Numbered from the stretch's first letter, positions 6,948 to 64,000 are shown. The stretch is DNA of 64,000 nucleotides from Candidatus Woesearchaeota archaeon (GCA_965205335.1 OZ242164.1:552713-616712), one strand, 5' to 3'. Numbers and translations: made by a program. The notes: generated by a model from the letters alone, not told the origin.

Positions 6948-8234
6948 TTAAAATAACCCCAATATCCCATACAATAAAGAAGGCCATATCGTAAAAACAA
7001 TTAAAACCAAACTAATCCAAGAAATAACATGATACACATTCAGAGCAGTTTTCTCTTTAAACTTCTTTTCAAGAAGAGTCTTGGCTATCTGTCCCCCATC
7101 TGTAATCCATATAGGAAGCAGATTCATCAATCCAATTGCAATATTCAAAAACCAAATCCAAAAAATAGCTCTCTCAAAACCAATAGGAAAACTTCCTAAA
7201 AACCCATATCCTTCCTTTGGTTCTGTATCTACACCAACGCCAGTTATCCCTATCATACCCTTTCCTTCTACACTTGGATTCTCAAACGTTACAATACTAT
7301 AATTAGTTACAAGACCTCCTTCAAGCAAAGTCAAATCAATAGTCTCATTAACTGAAAGATTACTTATCTTCTCCAAAATAACCCCTACATCTTCCTCACC
7401 ATTTAAAGAAATAATTTCTCCTGACATCACCCCATACCCATACAGAGAACTCTCATTCATTGTATTTTGAAACGTAATACTACTAGCATCCATTGTATTA
7501 TCAACTAAAGGCACAGCCGCAAAAACCCATACAAGAAAAAACAAAAATCCGAAAATAAAATTAGAAGTAGAACCTGCCCCAAGAACTGCAATCTTCTGCC
7601 ACTTCGGTTTCTTATCCATCTGTCTCTCATCGGGCTCAACAAATGCTGCGGGAACAATAGGAGCAAGAATTCCCAAAAAAGCAAATCCACTTGACTTAAC
7701 CTTTATATTAAACCTCTCAGCAATCACCCCATGAGCAAATTCATGAACAATCGCAAGTACAAATATCGCTATAATCCAATACCAGAAAGGAACAAAAAAG
7801 ATTGGAACTGCATTATCAAGCCCCTTCTCTGTCTGAATAGGAAGAACCAAACCTCCTCCTGCACTCATCTCATTCTCAACAATAAACAACAACTGCCAGA
7901 ACATGAAAACAAACATAAACACCACACCAACAACTCCAACAAATATTGCCAAATATGCAAGATAAAGAAATATCTTTGGATGCTTCTTTGACCACTTATC
8001 CATCCTATTAAGCCCTAACTTAGTTCTATATATCATCATATAAAAAATAGGAAAAGCCCCAGATATACTGAGATTCTTCCTTTTAACAAACAGAAAAAGA
8101 GTCAACAACATAACAAAAATTACAAACACAATATTATTTGAAATAAATTCAATCATAAATAATATCACTTGCACTTGTTTAAAAATATTTACATTTATGA
8201 CAACACCAATAAAACTAAAATTTATAAATTTCAA
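6948..8234 (-). CDS. Site-2 protease (peptidase M50) with a PDZ-like insert
   Basis: HEFAHGVIA (HExxH) in a TM helix and NLLPIWITDGGQ (LDG-type second motif); multi-TM. Confidence 0.75.
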   Translation of the reverse strand: MKFINFSFIGVVINVNIFKQVQVILFMIEFISNNIVFVIFVMLLTLFLFVKRKNLSISGAFPIFYMMIYRTKLGLNRMDKWSKKHPKIFLYLAYLAIFVGVVGVVFMFVFMFWQLLFIVENEMSAGGGLVLPIQTEKGLDNAVPIFFVPFWYWIIAIFVLAIVHEFAHGVIAERFNIKVKSSGFAFLGILAPIVPAAFVEPDERQMDKKPKWQKIAVLGAGSTSNFIFGFLFFLVWVFAAVPLVDNTMDASSITFQNTMNESSLYGYGVMSGEIISLNGEEDVGVILEKISNLSVNETIDLTLLEGGLVTNYSIVTFENPSVEGKGMIGITGVGVDTEPKEGYGFLGSFPIGFERAIFWIWFLNIAIGLMNLLPIWITDGGQIAKTLLEKKFKEKTALNVYHVISWISLVLIVFTIWPSLLYGILGLF

Positions 8235-16571: not shown

Positions 16572-19500
16572 ATGGCTCAATATATTTGTAAACTAAAATT
16601 AAACTATATGGAACTAGTCAAAGATGATACAATTAAAAAAATCATACTAGTTTTAGTTCTTCTTTTTGGAGTATCCTTAGTTCTCGGAGCAACAAGCAAT
16701 GGCGAGCCAGATTTTTATGATGATCCCTATGCACCTAACTCTTATGATGATCCCTACTCTTCTGGATCTTATAATGATCCCCATACACCTAACTATGATG
16801 ATCCCTACACTCCTGGATTTTATGATGATCCCTATGCACCTGGCTATTATGATCCCCATACACCTAACCATGATGATCCCTATGCACCTGGCTATTATGA
16901 TCCCCATACACCTAACTATGATGATCCCTACACTCCTGGATTTTATGATGATCCCTATACACCTGGATTTTATGATAATAATTATGATGCTGTGGATGGA
17001 GTTTGCGGTGTAGATGTTGATACATGTAAAAACGGGACCTACAAGAGCCTTCTGGATAATTCAACCCATTATTTATGGAATTGCATAGGATTAAATGGTG
17101 GAAGTGATGCATCTTGCAGTAAACCAAAATCTTCTACTGATGGAGTATGTGATAATTCTGGAAGAAATAGATGTTCAAGTGGAAGTTCTAATGATGGAGC
17201 ACATGCAGATACAACTTGTGAGCATAGATGGCGTTGTGATGGAGTACGTGGAGGAAGTAATTCGGGTATGTGCAGTATAGTCAAACCAAGCCGAATTGTA
17301 AATGGAGTATGTGATAATTCTGGAAGGAATAGATGTTCAAGTGGAGATGATAATGATGAGGCTGTCACAGATACAACCACTCACTATAGATGGCGTTGTG
17401 GTGGAAGTTGTGGTGGAAGTAATTCAGGAACGTGTAGTTATCCTATACCACCATCTTCTATTGATGGTGTTTGTGGTTCAAGTGTTAATAGTTGTATTGA
17501 TGGAACTTTGAGTGATATTGGAGATAATTCAACCCATTATTTATGGAATTGCATAGGATTAAATGGTGGAAGTGATGCATCTTGCAGTAAACCAAAATCT
17601 TCTACTGATGGAGTATGTGATAATTCTGGAAGAAATAGATGTTCAAGTGGAAGTTCTAATGATGGAGCACATGCAGATACAACTTGTGAGCATAGATGGC
17701 GTTGTGATGGAGTACGTGGAGGAAGTAATTCGGGTATGTGCAGTATAGTCAAACCAAGCCGAATTGTAAATGGAGTATGTGATAATTCTGGAAGGAATAG
17801 ATGTTCAAGTGGAGATGATAATGATGAGGCTGTCACAGATACAACCACTCACTATAGATGGCGTTGTGGTGGAAGTTGTGGTGGAAGTAATTCAGGAACG
17901 TGTAGTTATCCTATACCACCATCTTCTATTGATGGTGTTTGTGGTTCAAGTGTTAATAGTTGTATTGATGGAACTTTGAGTGATATTGGAGATAATTCAA
18001 CCCATTATTTATGGAATTGCATAGGGTTAAATGGCGGAAGTAACGCTTCATGTAATGAAAGAATATCATTAAATGAAGATGATAATACCTCAAATAGAAA
18101 TAATTCTAATAATAATTCAGAAAAGATTAAATTAAATATTATTTTTGGCTCATATTATGATAAATTATACCGTCCTTCTCAAGAACATATTCAACTTGAA
18201 TTTTCACAGAGAAATCTCTTTATGAATTGCAATGAGTTTGAAATCGATATTACACTAAATAATGAGTTTAACTACAAATATGATTTTCAAAAAAGAGTGA
18301 TTCCTGTGCATCTTGGTATTGGTCTTTTCGACATAACACTTGATGAACTCAGAAATGAATCAGACACTGTTAAGTATAACGCAGTTCTATCTGGAAAATG
18401 TGAAAACAATCCTAACAAAAGAACAACACTCTTATCGCAAGAAGGAACATTTCAAATACCTCCTTTTGATGTTACCTATGATCGGCTTACTAATAAGATA
18501 AGAATTAAACTCCCTGGATATACCCATTTAGAAAATTATGATATATATATGTTTAATATTACATTACACAATAAATTTAGTCTCACGTCTATATTTGAAC
18601 AACTTTCAAATAGAAAAGAATCATTTATAGAATTTAGTGTTGAACCTTCATTATTAGATAAACTTAGAGAAGAACCAGACTTAGTTAAATACAATGCAAT
18701 TCTTTATGGAGGAAAAACTGTAGGAGGGGATGAAAACCATTTGAATTTCAGCAAAATACTTGGTTCACAAGAAGGACTGTTTCTAATCCAGTTTCTAACC
18801 CTGTATGGTGAACAGTATGGTGAAGAAGGATGTGGGGGATACTGTGATATAGGACCTTTTCTATGGATGGGTGATGGAGATCACTCAAAATATGACTTAT
18901 TTTTTGTATTTGAGGGCAAAACAGTTGAGGAAGTAGAGGACCAATTAGATAGACATTTTAGAAACGGAGATTATTCTTTGTTTAAAACAAACCCTTTTAT
19001 TGAACAAGAAGATAAGTTTAATATTTATTATGCAATAATTTCAGATGCATATGATTATAAACTGAATAAGGAATGTAAATGGGGAACTTATCCCAGACCA
19101 GATTCTCATTTCAACAACATCTTCGCTCAATATGATTGGATAGATGGAGAAGTTCATTTTAGTCAGAACCCATCTGTATGGCCTTATGCTAAGTATGGTA
19201 AGTATATTCAGATGTCTTATGCTTGTTACAGATCTGTTTGGGGTGTCAATTGGGATAAAACTTTTGTCCATGAATTTGGGCATCTGTTCGGCTCTTTGAG
19301 AGATGAATACATTTATCCTTCTTTATCAGATAATAATGCTCGTTCACATGACAGAAAAAATTGTCTTTACATAAGGGAACTAGTGGGTAAAAAATGTGAA
19401 AATGGATGTGAACTAAAAGGAACTCACAGATGGGAACATATTCCAAACTTTGATGGAGAAGTACTCTCTGGATGTAAACATCCTCTTCTTTTTAGGGGTG

Positions 19501-19616
19501 AATTTAATAGTATCATGAGAAACGAATTGCAATTTTATAAAGACACTTGGGCAGGTGGTTGGGGTCCAGTTAATGAGTATTATCTAAGAGAAAAGTTAGA
19601 GGAGAATTATAGTTAA
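16572..19616 (+). CDS. Large surface protein: signal anchor, Tyr/Pro/Asp-rich 9-aa repeats, duplicated Cys-rich modules and a C-terminal M64-like (IgA-peptidase type) zinc metalloprotease domain
   Basis: N-terminal hydrophobic segment; (DDPYxPGxY) x about 12; modules DGVCG...THYLWNCIGLNGGS...C; C-terminal VHEFGHLFGSLRDEY matches the M64 HEFGHxFxxLxDEY signature. Confidence 0.7.
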   Translation: MAQYICKLKLNYMELVKDDTIKKIILVLVLLFGVSLVLGATSNGEPDFYDDPYAPNSYDDPYSSGSYNDPHTPNYDDPYTPGFYDDPYAPGYYDPHTPNHDDPYAPGYYDPHTPNYDDPYTPGFYDDPYTPGFYDNNYDAVDGVCGVDVDTCKNGTYKSLLDNSTHYLWNCIGLNGGSDASCSKPKSSTDGVCDNSGRNRCSSGSSNDGAHADTTCEHRWRCDGVRGGSNSGMCSIVKPSRIVNGVCDNSGRNRCSSGDDNDEAVTDTTTHYRWRCGGSCGGSNSGTCSYPIPPSSIDGVCGSSVNSCIDGTLSDIGDNSTHYLWNCIGLNGGSDASCSKPKSSTDGVCDNSGRNRCSSGSSNDGAHADTTCEHRWRCDGVRGGSNSGMCSIVKPSRIVNGVCDNSGRNRCSSGDDNDEAVTDTTTHYRWRCGGSCGGSNSGTCSYPIPPSSIDGVCGSSVNSCIDGTLSDIGDNSTHYLWNCIGLNGGSNASCNERISLNEDDNTSNRNNSNNNSEKIKLNIIFGSYYDKLYRPSQEHIQLEFSQRNLFMNCNEFEIDITLNNEFNYKYDFQKRVIPVHLGIGLFDITLDELRNESDTVKYNAVLSGKCENNPNKRTTLLSQEGTFQIPPFDVTYDRLTNKIRIKLPGYTHLENYDIYMFNITLHNKFSLTSIFEQLSNRKESFIEFSVEPSLLDKLREEPDLVKYNAILYGGKTVGGDENHLNFSKILGSQEGLFLIQFLTLYGEQYGEEGCGGYCDIGPFLWMGDGDHSKYDLFFVFEGKTVEEVEDQLDRHFRNGDYSLFKTNPFIEQEDKFNIYYAIISDAYDYKLNKECKWGTYPRPDSHFNNIFAQYDWIDGEVHFSQNPSVWPYAKYGKYIQMSYACYRSVWGVNWDKTFVHEFGHLFGSLRDEYIYPSLSDNNARSHDRKNCLYIRELVGKKCENGCELKGTHRWEHIPNFDGEVLSGCKHPLLFRGEFNSIMRNELQFYKDTWAGGWGPVNEYYLREKLEENYS
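16720..16985. repeat. Imperfect 27-nt tandem repeats encoding DDPYxPGxY
   Basis: gatgatccctaYRcMcctggMtWttat units repeated in frame inside the large ORF. Confidence 0.6.
17055..17990. repeat. Two identical 468-bp tandem copies (17055-17522 and 17523-17990) with a diverged third start
   Basis: Sequence beginning ataattcaacccattatttatggaattgcatag recurs at 17055, 17523 and 17991; the ORF-track pairs 17069-17380/17537-17848 etc. are identical. Confidence 0.85.
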
Positions 19617-31706: not shown

Positions 31707-33845
31707 CTAAACTTTTTTAACCAAATCCTTATAATACATAAGTCCCAACTGAGGTCCTTTCTTTGTCACAACATTGGCGCTATTTCCCGCTGCATACTCC
31801 ATTGCCTTTTTAATTGTACATCCCTTTGAATAAAAATACATAAAAGTTGCTCCAAAACAATCCCCTGCTCCTGTTGTATCAACAATCTTATCTGGCTTGA
31901 ATGCAGCAGTAAAATACTCCATATTCCCATCATAAGCGTAAGAACCATTCGCTCCATCCGTTACAATAACCAACTCACACGCAAGTTTCTTCAAACCCCT
32001 AAGAACAGAACTAAAAGACTGCTCCTTTCCCAAAATCTCACAAGCCTCCTCATAATTCAAAATAATAACATCACAAATCCTAATTAAATCCATTAACTTA
32101 GGTTCAGTGTGAATTAAAGAAGGACTTGCTCCATAAAAAATCTTTGCTCTCTTATTTCTCTTCTTTATAATCTTAGCAAGCTCTAACTGAGTCTTAAAAC
32201 TCTCCCCACTAAGAGCTGTAAAATAATAAAAATTTGAAGAAAATTTATTATAATCAAAATTATCTAACTCTAAAAACTGATTTGAACCCCTATAAGTAAT
32301 AATCAATCTGTCATTATCTTTTGTATCCAAAAGAATTGACTTGGCAATTGGTTTTTTTGTCTTCTTTGACTCAATTAATCTCACATTCTCTATATCAAGC
32401 CTCTCCTTTAAAAAATCAAACTCATTATATGAAATTTTTCCTAAATAGGCAACCCTTGCTCCCAACCTTGCAAGACAAACAGACATATTAACTCCCCCCC
32501 CCCCAAGTTCTTTCTTAAAATCATCCTTAACCCTAACTTTCTCACCAATATACAAATTTGAGAACTTCTCATTAACACTAACCACTGTATCCAAAACATT
32601 TGAACCCACTACTATAAAATCCTCTCTTCCTTCAAACTTAGAACATAACATCTCAAGAACTTCAATTCCAAAAAGTCTCTCATTTGACAAAAACTTAACC
32701 AAAGCCCCTCCAGCAAGACTAACATACGAAAACTTATCCAAACACTTGAACTTCTCTGCAACAGTTACACTATGCCCTCCTCCCACAAAAGAAAACCCCT
32801 TTGAATTTACAATCTCTCTTAGAATGCTCTTAGTTCCAACATCACACCCTTTAAGCTCAAAATTCCCGCAAGGCCCCTTCAAATAAATACCTCCTGCCTG
32901 CCTTAACAATAACGAATACTTTCTTATAGTATCACTTCCTATATCATTTATCATATTCTTATCCAAAAACTTCCTATTACTACCCAACCCACTTGCTTTT
33001 ATCTCAACCCTTCTTCCATTCAAAACTAATGCAACATCACTTGGAAATAAAATCTTCTTTGGATACTTTCTAAGAAGTCCCCTTAAATCCTTCTCAACTG
33101 ATAAATAATTATTCTCTCTTAGAAAATCCAGTTTCTTCCCCAGATAAAAACCATTAACATGCAGTGCAATCTCCCCAATAACACCTGTTAGCAAAATACA
33201 ATCAACTTCCTTTAACCTAAGAGACTTCTCAATCAAAGGAATTAAATCATCAGGCTTAGCTCCTCCAAAAACATATACTAATGGCCTATGAACTAATGAA
33301 ATACTATTTAACCCTCTAAGTTCTCTATCCATTAACCTTCCTGCAATTACTGGAATCTTTGAAAAACCAACAACAGACGTCTGCTTCCTATGACATACAG
33401 AAAACGCATCAAAAACATAATAATCGAAAACCCTCTCAAGCGACTTTATAATATTACCCTTCTTATTTACATCCAACTCATCATCATAGAACCTCAAATT
33501 CTCAAGCAAAAGAATCTCCCCACATTTTAGAGATAAAATCCTATCATCTCTTCTCTTATCATCCAAATCACAAAAACCAATCTTCCTATTAATACACTTT
33601 GAAATCAGCTTAGAATGCTGCTTTAAAGAAATACAATCCACCTTCCCAGTCCTGCCCTGATGCGCCAAAATAACTACTCTTGCTCCCTTACTTACAAGTT
33701 CATCTATTGTCGAAGACGCCTTAACAATTCTCTCATTTAGAACCACCTTTGACTTAATAACAGGAGAATTAATATCAATCCTTAGCCCTACAATCCTATC
33801 CTTTAAATCAAAACTATCAAGAGTGAAATAATTATGCATAAACAC
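31707..33845 (-). CDS. pgk: Fusion protein: phosphoglycerate kinase (N-terminal, about 400 aa) plus PfkB-family carbohydrate or nucleoside kinase (C-terminal, about 300 aa)
   Basis: PGK: RIDINSPV...VVILAHQGRTG...LLLENLRFY. PfkB: GGGGVNMSVCLARLG ... DTTGAGDCFGATFMY...GNSANVV. Confidence 0.75.
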   Translation of the reverse strand: MFMHNYFTLDSFDLKDRIVGLRIDINSPVIKSKVVLNERIVKASSTIDELVSKGARVVILAHQGRTGKVDCISLKQHSKLISKCINRKIGFCDLDDKRRDDRILSLKCGEILLLENLRFYDDELDVNKKGNIIKSLERVFDYYVFDAFSVCHRKQTSVVGFSKIPVIAGRLMDRELRGLNSISLVHRPLVYVFGGAKPDDLIPLIEKSLRLKEVDCILLTGVIGEIALHVNGFYLGKKLDFLRENNYLSVEKDLRGLLRKYPKKILFPSDVALVLNGRRVEIKASGLGSNRKFLDKNMINDIGSDTIRKYSLLLRQAGGIYLKGPCGNFELKGCDVGTKSILREIVNSKGFSFVGGGHSVTVAEKFKCLDKFSYVSLAGGALVKFLSNERLFGIEVLEMLCSKFEGREDFIVVGSNVLDTVVSVNEKFSNLYIGEKVRVKDDFKKELGGGGVNMSVCLARLGARVAYLGKISYNEFDFLKERLDIENVRLIESKKTKKPIAKSILLDTKDNDRLIITYRGSNQFLELDNFDYNKFSSNFYYFTALSGESFKTQLELAKIIKKRNKRAKIFYGASPSLIHTEPKLMDLIRICDVIILNYEEACEILGKEQSFSSVLRGLKKLACELVIVTDGANGSYAYDGNMEYFTAAFKPDKIVDTTGAGDCFGATFMYFYSKGCTIKKAMEYAAGNSANVVTKKGPQLGLMYYKDLVKKV

Positions 33846-34035: not shown

Positions 34036-36360
34036 ATGAATACAAAAACAAAAGCCGCCCAAAAAGTTGTCCAGAAAAAGTCCCAAGCAAAACGTACAAA
34101 AAAAGCAGAAACAGTTGTTACAAAAGAAGATGCAAAACTCTTAGATGATACTCTAAATATGGTTAAATCACTAAACCAAAAAATTAGTACTGTCAGTAAA
34201 GCAAAAACAAAACTCCAAAAGGATGTATCAGAACTAAGCAGAAGAATTGACTCAAAGGATAAAAACCAAACAGATGATTCAAAGTTAAAAGACGAAATAA
34301 TAGAAGAATTTAAACCAATCTTTAATAAACTAAATCCTCAGACATTAAAAACCCAGTTAAATAAAGAAATTAATTCATCCCTTAAACAGGAAATTGAAAA
34401 AGCAAAATCCCAAGTAAAATCAGATACGAAAAAAGGAGCAGAAGAAATCTCAAAGAAAGTAGCACATTTAGAGAAGGATTTAATGCAGTCAATAAAATCA
34501 AATGAAAAACTAAAAAATGAACTAAACAGATTAAGCAACTCAAAATTAGGTGAAGATATTTTTATAGGAGTTGAAAAGAAAATCCGTGAACATGTTGAAA
34601 TCTCCCTAAGAAAAATTTCAAAGGAAATTTCAGAGTTAAGAGTTAATCCACAAGGACATCAGGACAAATCCTTAAACAATAAGATAAGTAACATTGAAAA
34701 GTCTTTAAACAAACTTGAAAAGGAATTGAAAAAAACAGAGGATAAAACATCTAAAAGCATTCAAAAAGAAGTAGAAAACATCAAAAAGAAGATTCTAAGC
34801 GATTTGAAATCAAAAGATTTAAACCATAAAAGAGAACTTGAAGTATTTAAGATTGAAGTATCAAAGCATATCAGGGCATTACTTGATGGATTACATGCAG
34901 AATACAACCTACTAAAAGAGAAGGCTCAGGAGTCCCAGATGGAAGAAGAGAAATTCTTAGAGGAAGTAGCGCAGGGAAATTTGGACAGATATGAATTATT
35001 TTCACAAAGGGTTGATAAGGCAATAAAATCAAACAAAGAAACCGAAGAGAAACTTGTGGAATTAACTTATAACAATAAAGTTGAACTTGAAAACATATTT
35101 GCGCAGCAAATCAAAGAGGACTTAGCACAGAAAACAATTTCCAATAATGAGTTCTTATTAAATCTAAAAAAATTAGCAAAAGAGAAACAGGAGGAATTGT
35201 CAGAGAATATTGATAACAAATTAGTTAATTCAGTTGCCCAATTTGAAGGAAAGTTTCATGAGTACATGCAGGATTTTGACAAGGCCTTAAAGGAGAAAGA
35301 AAAAGAGTTTTTAGAAAAGTTAAAAGTAGTTGAGAATGAACGTTATGAAGTTATCTCTCAAATGGAAGAATTTAAAGAAGAAATATCAAAATTAACAAAA
35401 GAATATATGGCAAACCTTCATGATGAACTTGAGAGAATTAAGAAAAAAGAAGTTAAATTAGGTAATGAGAAAAACCAGTTTCTTGTACATATCAATGAAT
35501 CATCAAAGGCAAGAAAATTAGAAATTGAAGATCTTGCAAATCAAATGAAAGATAGAGTTAAGGGAGTTTTAGAGGAAGAGAGAGACGCATTTGACAGACA
35601 TGAAGAAACATTTAGAGGAGTGTTTTATGAAAAAGTCCAGAATCTGCATGATTTCTCAAAGAAAAAACTAGAAAATATTGAAAGAAAGTTTGTTGACAAG
35701 AATCTAAAATATGTTAGTGATAAAATTAATTCAATGCTTGAACCTCTAAGATTACTTGAAGAAAGTGTCAATGCAAAGGAAGGTGAAATTTCAAAATTAG
35801 GTCAGGAAATCAACAGCAAACAGGAAGTCTTCTTAGAAGATTTTCATTCACATCAAAAGAATTTAAATCAGGATTTTACAAAACTTGAGAAAAAGTTAAA
35901 TGAAAAACTTGAAGATTCAGACAAGCAAATTATAAAATCAAGAAGTGTTGTCAAAGCTATTCTTGAAGAAGTTGAATTCTCAATGACAAAAATGGATAAT
36001 TTAATCAATTCAAAGATAGAGGAAATTAATGCAGGCTTAAACAGATTAAAATCCATAGAAAGTAGACTCGTGGGAATTTCACAAATAGATTATAAGATTA
36101 ATCAGATAGAATCAAATATGAACAATATGCATGGTAAAATCAATGAAATTGAAAATCTAAATCATACACATGGGTTTGAATCACTTAATTTATTAGTTTC
36201 AACAATTGGAGAATACGAGCAAAATTTAATTGCCTTAGTAAAATCACTTAAATCAGAAGGAGTTTCAGAAGAGCACATTAAAACCATTCTAAGACAGAAA
36301 GGTCACCCTATGCTATATGTCTCAATGGTCTTGGAAAATCTGAACTTCTTAGAGCACTAA
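34036..36360 (+). CDS. Long coiled-coil protein (774 aa, Lys/Glu-rich), function unknown
   Basis: Heptad-rich low-complexity sequence throughout; no enzymatic motifs. Confidence 0.5.
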   Translation: MNTKTKAAQKVVQKKSQAKRTKKAETVVTKEDAKLLDDTLNMVKSLNQKISTVSKAKTKLQKDVSELSRRIDSKDKNQTDDSKLKDEIIEEFKPIFNKLNPQTLKTQLNKEINSSLKQEIEKAKSQVKSDTKKGAEEISKKVAHLEKDLMQSIKSNEKLKNELNRLSNSKLGEDIFIGVEKKIREHVEISLRKISKEISELRVNPQGHQDKSLNNKISNIEKSLNKLEKELKKTEDKTSKSIQKEVENIKKKILSDLKSKDLNHKRELEVFKIEVSKHIRALLDGLHAEYNLLKEKAQESQMEEEKFLEEVAQGNLDRYELFSQRVDKAIKSNKETEEKLVELTYNNKVELENIFAQQIKEDLAQKTISNNEFLLNLKKLAKEKQEELSENIDNKLVNSVAQFEGKFHEYMQDFDKALKEKEKEFLEKLKVVENERYEVISQMEEFKEEISKLTKEYMANLHDELERIKKKEVKLGNEKNQFLVHINESSKARKLEIEDLANQMKDRVKGVLEEERDAFDRHEETFRGVFYEKVQNLHDFSKKKLENIERKFVDKNLKYVSDKINSMLEPLRLLEESVNAKEGEISKLGQEINSKQEVFLEDFHSHQKNLNQDFTKLEKKLNEKLEDSDKQIIKSRSVVKAILEEVEFSMTKMDNLINSKIEEINAGLNRLKSIESRLVGISQIDYKINQIESNMNNMHGKINEIENLNHTHGFESLNLLVSTIGEYEQNLIALVKSLKSEGVSEEHIKTILRQKGHPMLYVSMVLENLNFLEH

Positions 36361-56350: not shown

Positions 56351-56400
56351 ATTCATTAAATTGAAGATAGTTAGCATAGATTTTGGAAAAAACAATTTTC
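56351..56400. repeat. Truncated right half of the GGCTCTGTCCG-family MITE (solo end)
   Basis: ttgaagatagttagcatagattttggaaaaaacaattttcggacagagcc is identical to the right 50 bp of copy C; the left half is absent. Confidence 0.55.
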
Positions 56401-56454
56401 GGACAGAGCCTTTTAAATAAAAGTTTTATAAATCAAAGTTTCTTAGTTTTACTT

Positions 56455-56922
56455 ATGACAGATTTAAAAGAAAAAATTATTGAAGTTCTAAGAGATGTAT
56501 ATGACCCAGAAATTCCCGTTAATGTGTACGATTTAGGTTTAATCTATGAAATAAATATAAAAGAGGATTCATCTGTTCACATCCTAATGACTTTAACATC
56601 CCCTACATGTCCAACAGCAGAATATATTCAGACTATGATTGAGGATGCAATTAAAACAATTTCTGATGTCAAGGATGTAGAAATTGAACTAACATTTACG
56701 CCTGCATGGACTCCTGATAGAGTTTCTATGGATGCGAAAGAAGAATTAGGACTTGGAGATGTTCAATCACAGGACAATTTAGCAGTTCAGTCAGTATACG
56801 GAGATGATAGTGTTTGTTCAAAGTGCAATATTTCAAGTGATAAGAAAATTCTTCTAAAAGCAGTTTGTGACAATAAAGAGATTTTGATTTGTAATGATTG
56901 TCTTGTTAAACAAGAGAAGTAA
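56455..56922 (+). CDS. DUF59 (MIP18/SufT-like Fe-S assembly) domain protein with a C-terminal Cys-rich extension
   Basis: IEVLRDVYDPEIPVNVYDLGLIYEI...LTSPTCP is the DUF59 signature. C-terminal CSKCN...CDNKEILICNDC. Start at Met 56455, 21 nt from TATA. Confidence 0.6.
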   Translation: MTDLKEKIIEVLRDVYDPEIPVNVYDLGLIYEINIKEDSSVHILMTLTSPTCPTAEYIQTMIEDAIKTISDVKDVEIELTFTPAWTPDRVSMDAKEELGLGDVQSQDNLAVQSVYGDDSVCSKCNISSDKKILLKAVCDNKEILICNDCLVKQEK

Positions 56923-56989
56923 CTTATTTAGGAACGATAAATTTATAAATATCAAAGCATATATATTATTATCTACTTTAATACTAAAA

Positions 56990-57577
56990 ATGAATATTGA
57001 CATAACTAAAATTAATATTGGTGAAATATCTCAGGTAATAAAAAGAGGAATATCGTCATATTATTTATGTGAGGAAGGTAATATTGAGAATTTTGTAAAT
57101 ATTAAAGATATTCAAAATGGAGTTATAAATATGGAATTCGTTGAAAGAGTTAAGATTAAAATTACAAATTCAACTAAAAATTCACAATTAGAAGTTGGAG
57201 ATTTGGTTTTAGCAGTCAAAGGCTCTAATTATAAGTGTGGTTTAGTTGATGAAAATTCAGAAGGTTCATATATTAGCAGTAATTTAATTGCAATTAAACT
57301 TAAACATCAATACAATTCTGAACTCGTTTTGGAATATTTGAACAGTTCTTTTGGTCAAAAGGAATTAAATATAAGAGCAAGTGGCAACTTTCAAAAATCA
57401 TTATCTATTAAGTCCATCTTAGATATTGAGATACCTATTTTTCCTAAAGATAAGGAAAATGTATTAGTTAAGTTTTTTGAGTTAAGTAAGAAGTTAGTTA
57501 AATTAAATATGCAAGAGTTAAAGTTAAGAAGCAAGTTAAATAATGAGATAATTGGAGAGGTTTTAAAAAATGATTGA
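56990..57577 (+). CDS. hsdS: Short (single-TRD) Type I restriction-modification specificity subunit HsdS
   Basis: N-terminal INIGEISQVIKRG start of a TRD and C-terminal conserved coiled region IPIFPKDKENVLVKFFELSKKLVKLNMQELKLRSKLNNEII; overlaps hsdM by 8 nt. Confidence 0.55.
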   Translation: MNIDITKINIGEISQVIKRGISSYYLCEEGNIENFVNIKDIQNGVINMEFVERVKIKITNSTKNSQLEVGDLVLAVKGSNYKCGLVDENSEGSYISSNLIAIKLKHQYNSELVLEYLNSSFGQKELNIRASGNFQKSLSIKSILDIEIPIFPKDKENVLVKFFELSKKLVKLNMQELKLRSKLNNEIIGEVLKND

Positions 57578-59069
57578 AAATACACTAACAGATGAACAGT
57601 TAAAAAGCAAAGTATGGCAGGCGGCAGATATATTAAGAGGTTCTATTGATTCATCAGATTATAAGAACTATATTTTCGGATTTTTATTCTTAAAAAGGTT
57701 GTCTGATGTTTTTGAAGAGAAAGTGCAGAAGATTTTAGATGAAGGAGAGAGTAAAGGTGTTGCATATGATCCTGATGAACACAAATTCTTTGTTCCCGAA
57801 AAAGCAAGATGGAAAAATATTAAGAAACAGCCTTCACAAATTGGTGATTATCTAAACAAAGTTGCAGCAGAGTTGGAGGATGAAAACAAATCATTGGACG
57901 GAGTTCTCAAAACTATTGATTTTAACAGCGAGCAGTTAGGAGATGTAAAGCAGAGAGATTCTACTTTATTGCAGTTAGTTCAGCACTTTTCAGCAATTCC
58001 TTTGAGAAATTCTGATATACACAGAGCTGACGCTTTAGGAGATGTATATGAGTATTTAATTGAGAAATTCGCTGATGATTCCGGAAAGAAAGGTGGAGAG
58101 TTTTATACACCAAAGGAAGTCGTTAAATTGATAGTTGAATTGTTAGACCCAAAAGAAGGAATGAGAATTTGCGACCCCACCTGCGGTTCTGGTGGTATGC
58201 TAATTGAAAGTGCTCATCATATTAAGGAAAGCAAAGGTAACGAACATAATATTTCTTTGTTTGGACAGGAAAAGAATGTCGGAACTTGGAGTATATGCAA
58301 GATGAATATGCTTTTGCATAATCTTCCCGATGCAGATATTAGAAAAGGAGATACTATTCGTGAGCCTAAATTATTATCTGACGGGCAGTTAGTATTGTTT
58401 GATAGAGTAATCGCCAATCCTCCTTTCTCCTTGGACAGATGGGGTATTGAAACCGCTCAAAATGATGGCTTTGGAAGGTTCATTTATGGAATACCTCCCA
58501 AGTCCAAAGGGGACTTTGCGTTTATTGAGCATATGATTGCAACAACTAATCAGGATGGAATGGTTGGAGTTGTAGTTCCTCACGGAGTTTTATTTAGAGG
58601 AGCATCTGAAGGAAGAATAAGGACTAATTTTATTGAAAAAGATTTAATTGAGGCTGTTGTTGGATTGCCTTCAAATCTGTTTTATGGCACAGGCATTCCT
58701 GCCGCAATTTTAGTGTTTAACAAATCCAAGTCTGCAGACAGAAGAAATAAGGTATTGTTCATTGATTCATCGCAGAATTTTGAAAGCGGAAAAAATCAGA
58801 ATAAGTTAAGAAGCAGTGATATTTCTAAAATTGTTAATGCATTTAAGGATTATAAGACTATTGATAAGTATTCAAGAGTTGTAGAGATTAAAGAGATTAA
58901 AGAGAATGATTACAATTTGAATATTTCAAGATATGTTGATACAACGCCAGAGGAAGAGCCCATTGACATTAAGGCGACTATAAAGGAGTTGAATGATATT
59001 GAGAAAGAGAAAGCAGAAGTAGAAAAAGAGATGAACAAATATTTAGAAGAGTTGGGATTTAAGAGGTGA
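57570..59069 (+). CDS. hsdM: Type I restriction-modification DNA methyltransferase subunit HsdM (N6-adenine)
   Basis: HsdM_N region, GEFYTPKEVVKLIVELLDP, motif I DPTCGSGGMLI, motif IV NPPFS. Confidence 0.9.
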   Translation: MIENTLTDEQLKSKVWQAADILRGSIDSSDYKNYIFGFLFLKRLSDVFEEKVQKILDEGESKGVAYDPDEHKFFVPEKARWKNIKKQPSQIGDYLNKVAAELEDENKSLDGVLKTIDFNSEQLGDVKQRDSTLLQLVQHFSAIPLRNSDIHRADALGDVYEYLIEKFADDSGKKGGEFYTPKEVVKLIVELLDPKEGMRICDPTCGSGGMLIESAHHIKESKGNEHNISLFGQEKNVGTWSICKMNMLLHNLPDADIRKGDTIREPKLLSDGQLVLFDRVIANPPFSLDRWGIETAQNDGFGRFIYGIPPKSKGDFAFIEHMIATTNQDGMVGVVVPHGVLFRGASEGRIRTNFIEKDLIEAVVGLPSNLFYGTGIPAAILVFNKSKSADRRNKVLFIDSSQNFESGKNQNKLRSSDISKIVNAFKDYKTIDKYSRVVEIKEIKENDYNLNISRYVDTTPEEEPIDIKATIKELNDIEKEKAEVEKEMNKYLEELGFKR

Positions 59070-59073
59070 TAAT

Positions 59074-60417
59074 ATGAGAAAGAAAGATATTCTTAAATTA
59101 ATTGAAACTGGAGAAGGTTATAAATTGGAGTTTAAGGAGACTTTTAGTAGTTCTATCGGAAAGGAAGTTTGCGCTTTTGCAAATGCATCAGGAGGTAAGA
59201 TTATTCTGGGAGTTAGAGATGATAATACAATTAGAGGTTGCTCATTAAATAATTCAGAATTTTCACGAATACAAGATATTGCACGAAATATAGAACCTTC
59301 TTTTAATGTTAGCATTGAACAGGTTGATGATTTAGTTGTTATTGATGTTTCAGAGGGCAAAGAGAAACCTTATTCTGTTAATGGGCATTTTTATATTCGT
59401 CAGGGGGCAAACTCCCAGAAGTTAAGAAGAGACGAAGTAAGAGGTTTTTTTCAAAGAGAGAATTTAATCAGGTTTGATAATAAAGCAAATCCTGATTTTG
59501 ATATTAGAAATGATTTTGACAGGGAAAAATTTAAAGCATTTGTTCAGAAATTAGGAGTTGATAAATCATTACCACAGAAGAATTTGTTGCAGAATTTAGG
59601 TTTAGTAACCGATGGAAAATTAAATAATACAGGGGTTTTGTTTTTTTCGCATAGAATTTCAAAGTTCTTTCTTAATTCTGTTATTTGTTGCGTTTTGTAT
59701 GATGGCAGAACAAAGACAAAGATTTTAGACAAGAAAGAATATGATGGGGATTTTGTTTCAAACTTTAATGATGCTGTGCTTTTTGTTCTGAGAAACCTCA
59801 GAACTGAATTTGTCATTGAGAAGATTGAGCGGGAGGAAAAAGAAGAGATTCCAGAAAATGCTTTAAGGGAGTTGATTATTAATGCAATGGCACACAGGGA
59901 TTATTTTTCAGAAGGACGCATATTAATTGAGATTTTTTCAGATAATGTTAAAATATCAAATCCCGGCAGTTTGTTGTTTGATAAAAAAGATTTTGGGAAA
60001 AGGAGTCTTTCAAGAAATCCCTTAATTGTTGATATAGCCCACAGATTAAAATTTGTTGAGCGTTTAGGTTCAGGTATTGAGAGAGTCAGAGAGATTTTAA
60101 AAGACAGAGTTAAATTTGAGATAAGTTCAGATTGGTTTGAGGTTATAATTAAGAGAAGGCAGATAAGAATTATTGCAGAAGAAACAGAGAATTACAGAAA
60201 GAGTTCACCAAAAGTTCATCAAAAAAGTTCACCAAAAATAATTGAGTTAATGAGAGAAAATCCTAATATAACAATAACAGAACTTTCCCTGATTATTGGA
60301 ATAACAGAGAGGGGAATAAAGAAGAATATTGCTAAATTAAAACAGGAAGGAATAATAAAAAGAGTTGGTTCATACAGGGCTGGTTATTGGAAAGTATTGG
60401 GGGATAATAAAAAATGA
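59074..60417 (+). CDS. AlbA_2 (divergent-AAA/Schlafen-like) plus HATPase_c_4 plus C-terminal wHTH protein embedded in the Type I R-M operon
   Basis: ETGEGYKLEFKETFSSSIGKEVCAFANASGGKIILGV (AlbA_2); ELIINAMAHRDYFSEGRILIEIFSDNVKISNPGSL (HATPase_c_4); C-terminal HTH ITITELSLIIGITERGIKKNIAKLKQEGII. Confidence 0.7.
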   Translation: MRKKDILKLIETGEGYKLEFKETFSSSIGKEVCAFANASGGKIILGVRDDNTIRGCSLNNSEFSRIQDIARNIEPSFNVSIEQVDDLVVIDVSEGKEKPYSVNGHFYIRQGANSQKLRRDEVRGFFQRENLIRFDNKANPDFDIRNDFDREKFKAFVQKLGVDKSLPQKNLLQNLGLVTDGKLNNTGVLFFSHRISKFFLNSVICCVLYDGRTKTKILDKKEYDGDFVSNFNDAVLFVLRNLRTEFVIEKIEREEKEEIPENALRELIINAMAHRDYFSEGRILIEIFSDNVKISNPGSLLFDKKDFGKRSLSRNPLIVDIAHRLKFVERLGSGIERVREILKDRVKFEISSDWFEVIIKRRQIRIIAEETENYRKSSPKVHQKSSPKIIELMRENPNITITELSLIIGITERGIKKNIAKLKQEGIIKRVGSYRAGYWKVLGDNKK

Positions 60418-61202
60418 TAGAGTACATAAAGTTATTTTTTGGGAAGCATTGGAAATTGGTTTTGGTTTTTGTAATTGGAGTTATCATTACTTTCAGTATA
60501 ATGTCTCATTTTCATCAAAAAGATATTGACATAAAGGATAGTACCATAGAAATAAAAGATAGCACTATAGAAAATTTGAAAGAACAACATCAGAAAGATA
60601 TAGATATAAAAGATAGCACCATAAAAAGTCTGGAAGTTCAGAATAATAATTTATCTTATCAAATTGGATATGTAAAAGAAGAAAGTTTAGAATGTAAAAT
60701 TGAATTCGGAGACTTTGATTTATCAAATAACAACATAATAAATTTTTCCACTCAAAAAGATTTAAATTTCAGTTGTATAGAGAAAGATGTTGTAATTGAT
60801 AAACTAATTGATAAAACTAATTCACAAGATGAAAGTTTGAGGATTTCAGAAAATAAGAATCAAGTTCTTGAAGAAGAAAATAACCAATTATCAAACGAGA
60901 ACTCAGATTTAAAAAGTAAAATTGGAATTGAGAAGAATTTCTTAAATAGTACAATCACGATTAATAATCTTAAAACATATGAAGCAGAAAATGGAAAATT
61001 CGCAATTACTGTAACAGGTATATTTAATGGGCAAACATCATTGAAAATTAATGGCAAGGACTTTAATAACTTAGGCAGAGGAACTCAAATAAATTTCACT
61101 TACAAAAACCAAGAATACATTTTGAGAATAAACGAGATTTATGGTGAGTCAGCATATCATAATCAAAATTACATAATTATTAGGATTATTAAAAATGACT
61201 AA
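60414..61202 (+). CDS. Hypothetical protein: N-terminal TM, internal near-identical QKDIDIKDSTI repeats, coiled-coil, beta-rich C-terminus
   Basis: TM WKLVLVFVIGVIITFSI; repeat HQKDIDIKDSTIE / HQKDIDIKDSTIK at 60520-60625; 4-nt overlap with the upstream gene. Confidence 0.4.
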   Translation: MIEYIKLFFGKHWKLVLVFVIGVIITFSIMSHFHQKDIDIKDSTIEIKDSTIENLKEQHQKDIDIKDSTIKSLEVQNNNLSYQIGYVKEESLECKIEFGDFDLSNNNIINFSTQKDLNFSCIEKDVVIDKLIDKTNSQDESLRISENKNQVLEEENNQLSNENSDLKSKIGIEKNFLNSTITINNLKTYEAENGKFAITVTGIFNGQTSLKINGKDFNNLGRGTQINFTYKNQEYILRINEIYGESAYHNQNYIIIRIIKND

Positions 61203-61254
61203 AACAAATGAAAACACTATTCCAAACTGTTGGCAAAAAGCAAAATCAAGATAA
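61195..61254 (+). pseudogene. Truncated duplicate of the hsdS 5' end (19 codons then stop)
   Basis: atgactaaaacaaatgaaaacactattccaaactgttggcaa... is about 75% identical to the start of the full hsdS at 63096 (atgactcaaacaaatgaaaacactatcccagaagattggcaa...). It encodes MTKTNENTIPNCWQKAKSR* versus MTQTNENTIPEDWQEVKLNE. Confidence 0.5.
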
Positions 61255-61262
61255 AAGAGAAA

Positions 61263-62354
61263 ATGGCAAGCACAACAAATAAACTGCAAACTAAGGATTT
61301 GATAAGATTTAAGCATATGTTTAAATTATTAGACATCTTTAGTTTTGTAATTACTAATTTTATTTTTTTTATAATTATTCTTTACTTTTACGATTTGAAT
61401 ATAAATCCCTTGCATCTTGCATTCTTGATAAACCTTTTAATTTTTATCATGATTTTAATCCTCAATTTTATCTTGCTAAAACCAGAACATATCTTGTTAT
61501 GGAAAAATTCTAAAAAGTATTTCGGTTTTATTCCATCATTAAATAAATTAGAAAGAAAAAACAGAAAATTTTTAAGCAGTTTCCATATTATCACATTGTT
61601 AATAATTATCACTAGAACTCTTTTCTTTGAAATCTTAAGAAATTTTTTTATAATTACAATAATTTGGAGTTCTATCCTATTGCTATTGTACTTTTTGGGA
61701 ATTTATGTAATAAATCAAAATATAGGATATGAAGCCTTCATATATCTAATCACTGCAATTGGGATTTTTTCTGGAATATTCCAATTTTATTTTAAAGATT
61801 ATAAAAACGAAGAGAAAAACAGAGTTCTTTTAATTATTCAAAATTATTTGAAAGAGAAAATTAAATTGGTTTCACAAGAAGAATTCTTAGAATATCTTAG
61901 TGAGAAAAACTCAAAATTGCACAACACTTTCAAAGATAAATGTAGAGATAATGTCGCTTATAATCAGAATAGAAACAATACTCTTTATCTTTCATTTCCC
62001 AATTATAAAAACTTTAATATTGTGATGAAAGAAATGGAAAATGGCGATAAAGAGGAATTTACTAATCATTTAAACAATTTTTTTGAAGAAAGATTTAATG
62101 AGGTTAAGGGAGACTTAGAAAAAGATTTTAAAACTGAGGAACTTATGGAATTAAGAGTACGTATCCTCACAATAATAACATTTTTAGATGACGCATTAGT
62201 TACTTTTCTAAATACAGAATTCAACTTGACAAAAAATCAGGAGAAAAACGAGAAATATGAGGACTATTTAAGCACTTTTATTACAGAAATATATGAGTGC
62301 CTCTTTGATTATTTCTTACTTGGAGAAAACACAAATAAAGAGGAGAAAAAATAA
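61263..62354 (+). CDS. Hypothetical membrane protein (4 N-terminal TM helices plus a roughly 190-aa cytoplasmic Lys/Glu-rich domain)
   Basis: Start MASTTNKL placed after the hsdS remnant; TM helices in residues 30-190. Confidence 0.45.
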   Translation: MASTTNKLQTKDLIRFKHMFKLLDIFSFVITNFIFFIIILYFYDLNINPLHLAFLINLLIFIMILILNFILLKPEHILLWKNSKKYFGFIPSLNKLERKNRKFLSSFHIITLLIIITRTLFFEILRNFFIITIIWSSILLLLYFLGIYVINQNIGYEAFIYLITAIGIFSGIFQFYFKDYKNEEKNRVLLIIQNYLKEKIKLVSQEEFLEYLSEKNSKLHNTFKDKCRDNVAYNQNRNNTLYLSFPNYKNFNIVMKEMENGDKEEFTNHLNNFFEERFNEVKGDLEKDFKTEELMELRVRILTIITFLDDALVTFLNTEFNLTKNQEKNEKYEDYLSTFITEIYECLFDYFLLGENTNKEEKK

Positions 62355-62355
62355 A

Positions 62356-63099
62356 ATGAGTTCTGAGAATAAATTGAAGGAGAAGAAGAAGAAGGAATGT
62401 GGAAATTATTATGATTGGTTATGTGGTGATGAAGATTTAGAAAGGGTAAAATTCTCTGAAAATATATCTGAAGAAGATATTGAAAAAATCAAATTTTTAT
62501 TTAGAAACTGTTGTTATAATAAAAACAGATTTGAGGAAGAATTTAATAGAGATGAAGGCTGGAAGTTTGACAAAGGATTTTTTAAACATAACAATCTTAA
62601 ACTTAAAGCACAAATTCCATTTACAATGTGGGCAGATATTCACGTTTTTGAGTTTAATTCTTTCTTGTTTAATGTTTCAAGATTAATAAATTTTTTAGTT
62701 AAAGTAGAATTGGAAATGGAAAGCATAGATACTAAGAGAACTCCCACAATTAATGAACTCTTAAATGAGAAAAGGAAAGCGAAATTCAAATCATTCAAAC
62801 TTTATGATTTTTTTAAGGAAGAAAATGAGAAATGGGTAAGATTTCTAAACAATTTGAGGAATGAAATTACTCATAAGGAAATAGAGAGAAAATTAGAAGG
62901 TTATTACAAATTAGATGTTAGGATGGACAAGAAAAGTGATGAATTGGTAGTTAAGCAAGAAAAAATCTTTGAAGTAAAGAAATACAACATAGACAATTTG
63001 AAAGTTTATATAAATATGAGTTTGAATAATCTTACATATTTAATAAATGAATTTATGAACAGGATAGAAGTAAATTATCAAATCAAAAATAAGAAATGA
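62356..63099 (+). CDS. Hypothetical soluble protein with an Abi_2/HEPN-like RNxxxH motif
   Basis: FLNNLRNEITHKEIERKL matches the Rx4-6H HEPN motif in its AbiD/AbiF-like R-N-x3-H form. Translationally coupled to the upstream 4-TM gene (stop, one nt, then ATG) and to hsdS (ATGA). Confidence 0.35.
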   Translation: MSSENKLKEKKKKECGNYYDWLCGDEDLERVKFSENISEEDIEKIKFLFRNCCYNKNRFEEEFNRDEGWKFDKGFFKHNNLKLKAQIPFTMWADIHVFEFNSFLFNVSRLINFLVKVELEMESIDTKRTPTINELLNEKRKAKFKSFKLYDFFKEENEKWVRFLNNLRNEITHKEIERKLEGYYKLDVRMDKKSDELVVKQEKIFEVKKYNIDNLKVYINMSLNNLTYLINEFMNRIEVNYQIKNKK

Positions 63100-64000
63100 C
63101 TCAAACAAATGAAAACACTATCCCAGAAGATTGGCAAGAAGTTAAATTGAACGAAATAATAAAGATTAAAAAGGGGAAAACCCAAAGTCCTCTTTTTGAT
63201 AATAAGGTTGATAGTTCATTACCTCATATTTTAGTTGAATCTTTTGATGGAAATTATAAAAGATTTACAACTTCAAAAAATGGAGTCTTATGTTCAAAAA
63301 ATGAAATATTAACTATCTGGGATGGTTCAAGATTTGGCTTAGTCGCAAAAAATTTAGAAGGGTATGTAGGTTCAACTATTGGAATCTTAACACCCATTAA
63401 TAACTTAAATAAAGACTATCTTTACTATTTTTTAGAGGAAAATTATAATAATATTAGAAAGACCACAGCTGGAAGTGGAATTCCGCATATAGATAAAAAT
63501 TACTTATTAAGTTTAAAGATTTGTTTGTTTTCCATAAAAAAACAGCAAAAGATAGCGTCTATATTAACAAGTGTTGATGATTTAATAGAACAAACACAAA
63601 GAACACTTGAAAACAATCAAGTTTTAAAAAAAGGATTAATGAATGAATTATTAACAAAAGGAATAGGACACAAAGAATTTAAAAAAATAAAATTAGGATT
63701 AAAGGAAATTGAAACACCCATTGATTGGGGAATTATGAATTTCGGAGAATTTACAAAAATGATTTCTAAAAAAAATACAGATAAACAAATAACTAATGTT
63801 GTTTCTGTGACTAAATATGATGGTATTGTTGATTCATTAGAATATTTTAAGAAACAAGTTTATAGTAAAGAACTAGGAGTATATAAAATAATTAAAAAAT
63901 ATCAATTTGCTTATGCAACAATTCATCTTGAAGAGGGTTCAATAGGTTATTTAGATATTTATGATGAAGCAGTTTTAAGTCCTATGTATACTGTTTTTGA
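63096..64000 (+). CDS. hsdS: Type I restriction-modification specificity subunit HsdS (5' partial in window, continues beyond 64000)
   Basis: IPEDWQEVKLNEIIKIKKGKTQS (TRD1 start) and central conserved region SIKKQQKIASILTSVDDLIEQTQRTLENNQVLKKGLMNELLTKG, followed by TRD2. Confidence 0.7.
   Translation, partial: MTQTNENTIPEDWQEVKLNEIIKIKKGKTQSPLFDNKVDSSLPHILVESFDGNYKRFTTSKNGVLCSKNEILTIWDGSRFGLVAKNLEGYVGSTIGILTPINNLNKDYLYYFLEENYNNIRKTTAGSGIPHIDKNYLLSLKICLFSIKKQQKIASILTSVDDLIEQTQRTLENNQVLKKGLMNELLTKGIGHKEFKKIKLGLKEIETPIDWGIMNFGEFTKMISKKNTDKQITNVVSVTKYDGIVDSLEYFKKQVYSKELGVYKIIKKYQFAYATIHLEEGSIGYLDIYDEAVLSPMYTVF

Follow-up and report, generated by a model that had tools for sequence, protein, structure and literature searches.

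Candidate defence genes within the type I restriction-modification operon of an archaeon with a small genome

Introduction

Do four genes that lie between hsdM and hsdS of an archaeal type I restriction-modification (R-M) operon make up one defence system, or are they separate arrivals at the same site? The question is raised by a gene block (59074-63099) in a stretch of 64,000 nt from a Candidatus Woesearchaeota archaeon (GCA_965205335.1 OZ242164.1:552713-616712), the whole of which is here called the window. All open reading frames (ORFs) of the operon are read on the + strand, in the tightly packed order half-size hsdS, hsdM, A, B, C, D and hsdS, where A to D denote the four genes in question. 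A preliminary description, made from the sequence alone, had taken them for a candidate undescribed defence or abortive-infection module. The analysis reported here leads to another reading, which we hold to be reasonably probable, namely that second-line defence candidates became embedded in a type I R-M operon, here of an archaeon with a small genome, in at least two events and do not form one multi-gene system.

Nuclease genes embedded in R-M operons, many of them of the HEPN type, have been described since 2013 (PMC3710099), and "guilt by embedding" was later systematised for the operons of type I R-M, BREX, DISARM and Hma, with HEC-08, HEC-09 and PrrC among the embedded genes (Payne et al. 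2024, bioRxiv 10.1101/2024.01.29.577857). HEC-08, a DUF3644 HEPN protein, was found to be a single-gene defence that needs the histidine of Rx4-6H, and HEC-09, a NYN protein, is a validated embedded gene (10.1101/2024.01.29.577857). An experimental example with two genes is TgvAB, which is embedded in the type I R-M operon of VPI-2 in Vibrio cholerae (PMC11411939). These three sources bear out the premise of the preliminary description that type I R-M operons are sites for embedded defence genes. Small-genome archaea have been reported to have few R-M and CRISPR systems and many compact single-gene candidates for defence (PMC12988326).

Results

The order of assembly can be read from a duplication of the hsdS start. 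A 19-codon ORF (61195-61254, + strand), whose ATG overlaps the stop codon of B, encodes MTKTNENTIPNCWQKAKSR followed by a stop and resembles the true hsdS start at 63096, MTQTNENTIPEDWQEV... At the DNA level, a 59-nt direct repeat (D2) has one copy here (61188-61246) and the other at the functional hsdS start (63089-63147, + strand), with 48 of 59 positions matching (81% identity); when the repeat was run as a query over the entire window, the mean was 17.7 matches (standard deviation 3.7) and the next best sites reached 32-34. The short ORF is what is left of a second hsdS 5' end, now decayed, and the two copies of the repeat flank the C-D segment of 1.9 kb. Since a copy of the hsdS start follows B, B was once translationally coupled to an hsdS start, and since the remnant stands between B and C, C and D arrived separately, which brings the number of assembly events to at least two. 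C and D came later; they were inserted at the 5' end of hsdS or entered along with a replacement hsdS.

The survey of homologous loci gave a similar picture. No two of A, B, C and D were found together at any other locus among the 15 loci with an A homologue and the approximately nine loci of the D family; the former contained no homologue of B, C or D and the latter none of A, B or C. The four genes are not one inherited unit, under insertion or replacement alike, and the single undescribed four- or five-gene system of the preliminary description is not supported, in view of this lack of co-occurrence and of the hsdS remnant that splits the block.

Gene D (62356-63099, + strand) encodes a protein of 247 aa, or of 268 aa if translation begins at an upstream ATG at 62293. 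No HEPN match was obtained in Pfam, PADLOC, PHROG or NCBIfam, no library recognises D, and a word-index search with D returned only D itself. An exhaustive phmmer search retrieved 16 relatives with 25-45% identity, giving a family of 17 members. A profile search with the family alignment (A1) returned five proteins from a set of 5.8 billion, a search for related loci with A2 gave one metagenome locus and no viral locus, and plasmids yielded no match. The family alignment contains three conserved blocks, the last of which reads WIxxxNxLRNxxxH; all 14 members whose sequence spans the motif have R168 and H173, and E99 is present in 16 of 16. The structure prediction that had been suggested for 62356-63099 gave an up-down bundle of four helices (AlphaFold2 (AF2), 17-sequence alignment, pLDDT 89.1, pTM 0.84), with long helices at residues 39-64, 95-121, 150-174 and 215-246 and with beta-hairpin inserts. 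Helix 3 has R168 and H173 at its C-terminal end and helix 2 contains E99, while an insert with two short helices (122-149) separates helices 2 and 3. HEPN proteins are defined by Rx4-6H at the end of helix 3 or the start of the helix 3-4 loop and by an acidic residue in helix 2 (PMC3710099, Anantharaman et al.), and they often carry an insert between helices 2 and 3 (PMC3710099); the model of D fits this definition in the position of the motif, of the acidic residue and of the insert.

Sub-threshold Pfam matches to HEPN_Apea, Swt1, HepT and Cthe2314 appeared in several family members, HEPN_Apea in four of the 17 (best E-value 5.6e-4, 20.8 bits against a cut-off of 24.4), and the HEPN_Apea and Swt1 matches, whose positions were checked, fall on the motif helix. 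When the model was compared with the HEPN domains of RnlA and LsoA (PDB 6y2r and 5hy3), identities were 13% and 7%, respectively, and the scores were not separable from those of non-HEPN helical bundles. The model and the conserved residues make it very probable that D has a HEPN fold with a catalytic R-x4-H (R168-x4-H173), and by analogy D would be an RNase. Judged by sequence, D founds a small HEPN-like family that is missed by the current hidden Markov model (HMM) libraries. The preliminary description, which had called the RNxxxH protein HEPN/Abi_2-like, was very probably right as to the type of fold and not as to Abi_2, since no Abi_2 (AbiD/AbiF) match was found for D or any of the 17 members, even at E<=1. 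Two further assignments were rejected: D is not PrrC, being a protein of 247 aa that has no ATPase domain and matches no PrrC model, and it is not part of a HEPN-MNT pair, its neighbours being C, a membrane protein with no NTP_transf match, and hsdS. Residues 93-212 of D also gave a weak NCBIfam match to the N-terminal part of KamC, the reactivase ATPase of lysine 5,6-aminomutase (4.8e-5, 22 bits against a cut-off of 300), which may reflect composition or a shared helical-bundle segment.

Its contexts show the D family as a solo, mobile accessory gene that belongs to neighbourhoods of the defence type, and embedding in an R-M operon was seen twice. The closest homologue (P0003, 36% identity) is itself located in a type I R-M operon from a metagenome, in which seven genes are embedded (L005:4532-15510; JGI 3300033141, Ga0366833_1005466; L006 is alike). 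Here hsdM and hsdS are separated by four genes without annotation (99, 290, 227 and 198 aa), and downstream of hsdS come the D homologue, a gene for a 154-aa protein whose C-terminal part has two transmembrane (TM) helices, a NYN gene that matches HEC-09 (2.7e-12), hsdR and a YgjP-like gene. The four unannotated genes match neither PADLOC nor A, B or C of the window, and no flanking duplication of the window's kind was found at this locus. Elsewhere, D homologues were found beside a SIR2_2 gene, near Mrr_cat and an integrase, in a Prim-Pol/integrase/HNH element, and near ParE or DUF4258/DUF2283 toxin-antitoxin genes; others lie among unannotated genes. The family looks confined to low-GC DNA (25-41% GC), with clear archaeal markers at one locus.

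In three contexts the D-family gene is translationally coupled, by a 1-nt gap or a 4-nt overlap, to a multi-TM protein, and these proteins are not homologous to one another (C in the window, 61263-62354; the 154-aa protein, L005:10711-11175; and a 116-aa protein, L009:8360-8710). Divergent multi-TM neighbours of D homologues were seen at two more loci (386 aa in L007 and 132 aa in L003). With nine contexts, the coupling is a weak trend and is not significant. At another locus, a gene for a 490-aa protein (L027:4624-6096) lies directly upstream of the D homologue P0006 and in PADLOC weakly matched the HEPN part at the C-terminus of Csx1 (7.8e-5), which would mean, should the match be real, two HEPN-type genes in tandem.

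Gene A (59074-60417, + strand; 447 aa) is the member of the block that could be assigned by HMM searches, B, C and D having matched no library family. All three domains that had been named for A were found above their Pfam cut-offs: SLFN_AlbA_2 (8.6e-22, 78.3 bits, cut-off 25.3), the GHKL-type HATPase_c_4 (PF13749; 3.7e-14, 52.9 bits, cut-off 26) and a C-terminal helix-turn-helix (HTH), HTH_24, at residues 388-429 (6.2e-08, 32.5 bits, cut-off 21.9). Additionally, A matched the Schlafen/ATPase part of a PADLOC model for prokaryotic Argonaute (pAgo; 1e-17), phrog_12156 (6.9e-65) and PDB 3lmm (8.2e-06). Schlafen domains of prokaryotes have been shown to be endonucleases of tRNA that carry an E-D-K triad (PMC13462974), and the motif E14-x4-E19-x-K21 of A, which belongs to an invariant GEGYKLEFKE block and is kept across 10 homologues, has the spacing of the tRNase triad of CbCash, E17-x4-D22-x-K24 (PMC13462974), an equivalence drawn from the motif and not from structural superposition. 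The Schlafen nuclease motif of A thus reads as intact, and A probably acts as a nuclease effector and not just as a regulator. Proteins that pair Schlafen with PF13749 have been named "Schlatpase"; most of them have a C-terminal HTH as their only addition, the most frequent architecture, and the module is documented as being exchanged with type I R-M systems (bioRxiv 10.64898/2026.05.29.728809). By its domains, A is a Schlafen(AlbA_2)-GHKL ATPase-winged HTH protein of the "Schlatpase-HTH" class.

Homologues of A were found in 15 genomes. Of six contexts, one is an hsdR-hsdM interval (L015), one has a Cas7 neighbour and one has a CBASS cyclase neighbour. In a Micrarchaeota metagenome-assembled genome (MAG), the homologue lies immediately upstream of a Cas7-containing gene row (L012:764-6565), and in a Marinifilaceae MAG it lies two genes downstream of a CBASS SMODS/AGS_C cyclase (L014:3048-7382); both contexts fit published accounts in which the Schlafen class accompanies several defence systems. 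Schlafen-ATPase-DNA-binding proteins have been reported to be tightly associated with three kinds of system, R-M, BREX and type I CRISPR (PMC13462974), and the recurrence of AlbA_2/Schlafen proteins at R-M loci, noted in the preliminary description, agrees with the literature (PMC13462974; bioRxiv 10.64898/2026.05.29.728809). On its motif, domains and homologue contexts, A therefore belongs to a recognised and mechanistically open class. The closest genomic homologue (60% identity), in a Methanosarcinaceae MAG (L010:8001-9308; JAMJFS010000003.1), has an in-frame TAA at 8112 that replaces a conserved lysine codon, and is a pseudogene or an assembly error; a pyrrolysine codon was ruled out, the codon being TAA and not TAG.

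Gene B (60414-61202, + strand; 262 aa) encodes a membrane-anchored repeat protein. The TM segment and internal repeats that had been described were confirmed, as one N-terminal TM segment at residues 15-33 (by hydropathy) and three HQKDIDIKDSTIE-type repeats, also seen as DNA repeats D1, D3 and D4 and by TRF. The protein also has a polar, repeat-rich stretch, called a coiled coil in the preliminary description, and a C-terminal region of about 85 aa. B has no family in Pfam, PADLOC, NCBIfam or PHROGs and no match in the PDB, plasmids, phages, viral contigs or the fetched loci, and the large protein databases were not searched with it.

Gene C (61263-62354, + strand; 363 aa from the ATG, a TTG at 61230 being likewise open) encodes a polytopic membrane protein. 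It had been described as a 4-TM protein, and its polytopic nature stands, although hydropathy gives 4-5 hydrophobic or TM segments within residues 22-177, to which a helical C-terminal tail of about 185 aa is added. The AF2 single-sequence model is all-helical, with a confidence too low for use (pLDDT 46). In a word-index search of 5.8 billion proteins C matched only itself, and it had no family match in Pfam, PADLOC, NCBIfam or PHROGs and no match in the PDB; two viral matches were discarded as spurious, being due to a chance word (WKNSKKYF) inside a larger phage protein. Although it came with D, to which it is translationally coupled, C is not a conserved partner of D. The notion of C and D as a conserved effector pair was not upheld, given that C has no homologue and that a C-like neighbour was absent from all the loci with a D homologue that were examined.

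The R-M genes on either side of the block were identified. HsdM (57570-59069, + strand; 499 aa), the type I methyltransferase, matched N6_Mtase (4.7e-112) and HsdM_N (3.4e-34) in Pfam and MTase_I (3e-168) in PADLOC. The downstream hsdS is of the full-length type (63096 to beyond 64000, + strand), stays open for 301 codons to the window end and matched Methylase_S (Pfam, 6.6e-20) and Specificity_I (PADLOC, 1.8e-47). Upstream of hsdM lies the half-size hsdS (56894-57577, + strand; 227 aa), with a single target-recognition domain, whose end overlaps the hsdM start by 8 nt; it matched PADLOC Specificity_I (3.1e-16) and 51 more S-subunit models and had no Pfam match at E<=0.1. Because the start of this ORF overlaps the preceding gene for iron-sulfur (FeS) assembly (56383-56922), the ATG at 56990 may be where it really begins. 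No long repeat was detected between the two hsdS genes, which stand in direct orientation.

ORF, Pfam and PADLOC results agree with the initial account of four genes in one orientation between hsdM and hsdS. The chain of overlapping or adjacent codons that had been reported holds for most junctions, with a gap of 4 nt between hsdM and A, ATGA overlaps from A to B and from D to hsdS, and a stop, 1 nt and ATG from C to D, where GAGGAG precedes the D start; it fails between B and C, where a 60-nt spacer contains the decayed hsdS start. The four ORFs of the block are not chance ORFs, because the longest alternative-frame ORF in 59074-63099 is 90 aa at a GC content of about 25% and because D, moreover, has homologues. 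A scan for sigma-70 promoters and intrinsic terminators gave nothing above shuffled sequences, such models not being applicable to archaea. The source contig, about 1.2 Mb in length, has a GC content of roughly 30%, and the host, perhaps a DPANN-type organism, is an archaeon, since the EF-2 of the window scores 1024.8 bits against the aEF-2 equivalog.

Outside the operon, a 712-aa ORF (31707-33845, - strand) joins two kinases in an unusual fusion, a complete phosphoglycerate kinase (PGK, 4.6e-86) and a carbohydrate kinase of the PfkB family (2.8e-41). Two large ORFs on the + strand (16572-19616, 1014 aa, and 34036-36360, 774 aa) have no convincing Pfam family, the 774-aa ORF giving only a sub-threshold match to the Apolipoprotein repeat.

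Discussion

Gene order, domains, motifs, the fold model of D, the hsdS remnant and the contexts of homologues are direct readings, and from them we infer the activities, the triggers and any protein-protein link to the R-M complex in the following scenario. A first event would have brought A, perhaps together with B. Cash and SLFN-pAgo suggest, by analogy, that A may be a latent tRNA or RNA endonuclease that is switched on during infection by ATP-dependent oligomerisation and DNA binding, the DNA cue perhaps being restriction products. In a second event, the 1.9-kb C-D cassette would have landed at the very start of hsdS, leaving behind the decayed 19-codon hsdS start. D would then dimerise, cut RNA by means of R-x4-H and halt translation when restriction fails, a logic that may be likened to abortive infection by PrrC, ApeA or HEC-08, and C might tether D at the membrane, regulate or gate it there, or act as a second effector.

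Known systems resemble single parts of the locus. A shares with SLFN-pAgo, Cash and Schlatpase the AlbA_2 Schlafen domain, the PF13749 GHKL ATPase, the C-terminal HTH, the catalytic motif and the R-M location, and differs from them in having no Argonaute, Csx15 or NACHT sensor parts. D resembles HEC-08 and HEC-09 as a small nuclease gene (as predicted) between core restriction genes, and its closest homologue lies two genes upstream of a HEC-09-like NYN gene; unlike HEC-08, D matches no PADLOC model, that of HEC-08 included, and has beta-hairpin inserts and no zinc-finger tail, and the window differs from the described cases of embedding in that the block also holds two orphan membrane proteins. 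PrrC and RloC (EcoprrI) offer the likeness of a latent HEPN-type RNase in a type I R-M operon and of a proposed back-up RNA cleavage upon defeated restriction. However, the N-terminal ABC ATPase that is fused to the nuclease in PrrC has no counterpart in D, there is no sequence match, and control of D by the R-M complex is conjecture. With ApeA and the solo HEPN families (Abi2/AbiD/F, AbiU2, AbiJ and EC042_2821; PMC3710099), D has in common the position of R-x4-H where helix 3 ends, an acidic residue within helix 2 and the embedding in R-M, and HEPN_Apea is the best weak Pfam match of the family; nevertheless, D does not have the beta-rich N-terminal domain of ApeA, and all the matches are sub-threshold. 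D also differs from RnlA and LsoA in having no RnlB/LsoB-like antitoxin. TgvAB provides a precedent for a functional two-gene cassette that interrupts and complements a type I R-M operon, although it is a GmrSD-like type IV restriction system unrelated to C-D in sequence or mechanism.

Several points weigh against the scenario. Only two of the approximately nine D-family contexts are R-M operons; no Pfam HEPN gathering threshold was reached by D or by the members of its family, and Foldseek comparison of the D model with the PDB and BFVD gave nothing significant. Guilt by association is not applicable to B and C, which have no homologues (B in limited collections). hsdR is not within the window, which ends inside hsdS, and the R-M system may be incomplete. 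Finally, the remnant could equally mark an older hsdS that was replaced by an incoming C-D-hsdS block, which would leave the separate origin in place and give it a different history.

A first alternative is one integrated undescribed system that includes hsdM and the two hsdS genes, with A as sensor or regulator, B and C as a membrane complex and D as RNase effector. The single orientation, the tight or overlapping junctions, the absence of a terminator-like site inside the block and the location of all genes in one operon speak for it, whereas it is made highly improbable by the lack of a second locus with any two of the four genes, by C being a singleton, by the remnant that splits A-B from C-D and by the solo occurrence of D homologues in varied contexts. 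The smaller claim, that C and D form a new two-gene archaeal abortive-infection module in which the membrane protein senses or gates and a novel-family HEPN RNase is held at or released from the membrane, appears unlikely, if less so than the integrated system. If it were true, the coupling to unrelated multi-TM proteins (C, the 154-aa protein of L005 and the 116-aa protein of L009) would point to a general design of membrane partner plus HEPN, loosely like Cas13b with Csx27 or Csx28.

The C-D segment could also be a selfish, toxin-antitoxin-like addiction cassette, in which a HEPN toxin, D, is checked by C and which persists because its loss does harm, with no role against viruses and no functional tie to R-M. 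The translational coupling and joint arrival of C and D are consistent with this, as are the D homologues near ParE and DUF4258/DUF2283 genes and on an integrase element, and the two further contexts in which a D homologue overlaps an unrelated small 2-TM protein. Yet an adjacent antitoxin of a known type (MNT or RnlB-like) is absent, the partners are mutually non-homologous and several D homologues have no co-oriented partner at all, so that a purely selfish role is given a low probability; toxin-antitoxin and abortive-infection roles are, besides, not mutually exclusive. An equally doubtful possibility is that B, C and possibly D are unrelated cargo at a recombination-prone spot, that is, lineage-specific membrane or surface proteins and a non-catalytic helical bundle, with A as the only defence-related gene. 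The strict retention of R-x4-H and E99 at 25-45% identity argues instead for a catalytic site in D, and the closest homologue of D lies once more in a type I R-M operon, by a HEC-09-like gene. The reading as embedded defence candidates gained in at least two events is the one that we retain.

Conclusions

What is new here is a HEPN-like family that has no annotation, together with two orphan membrane proteins and a clear scar that may stem from insertion, and no new category of system. A profile of the D family could be added to defence annotation tools, and A adds to the natural examples of Schlafen-ATPase-HTH proteins encoded within R-M operons. The duplicated hsdS start is a clean molecular scar of how embedding happens, and, if the reading that we favour is right, the locus would be a case, in an archaeon with a small genome, of compact defence candidates that accumulate within a type I R-M operon.

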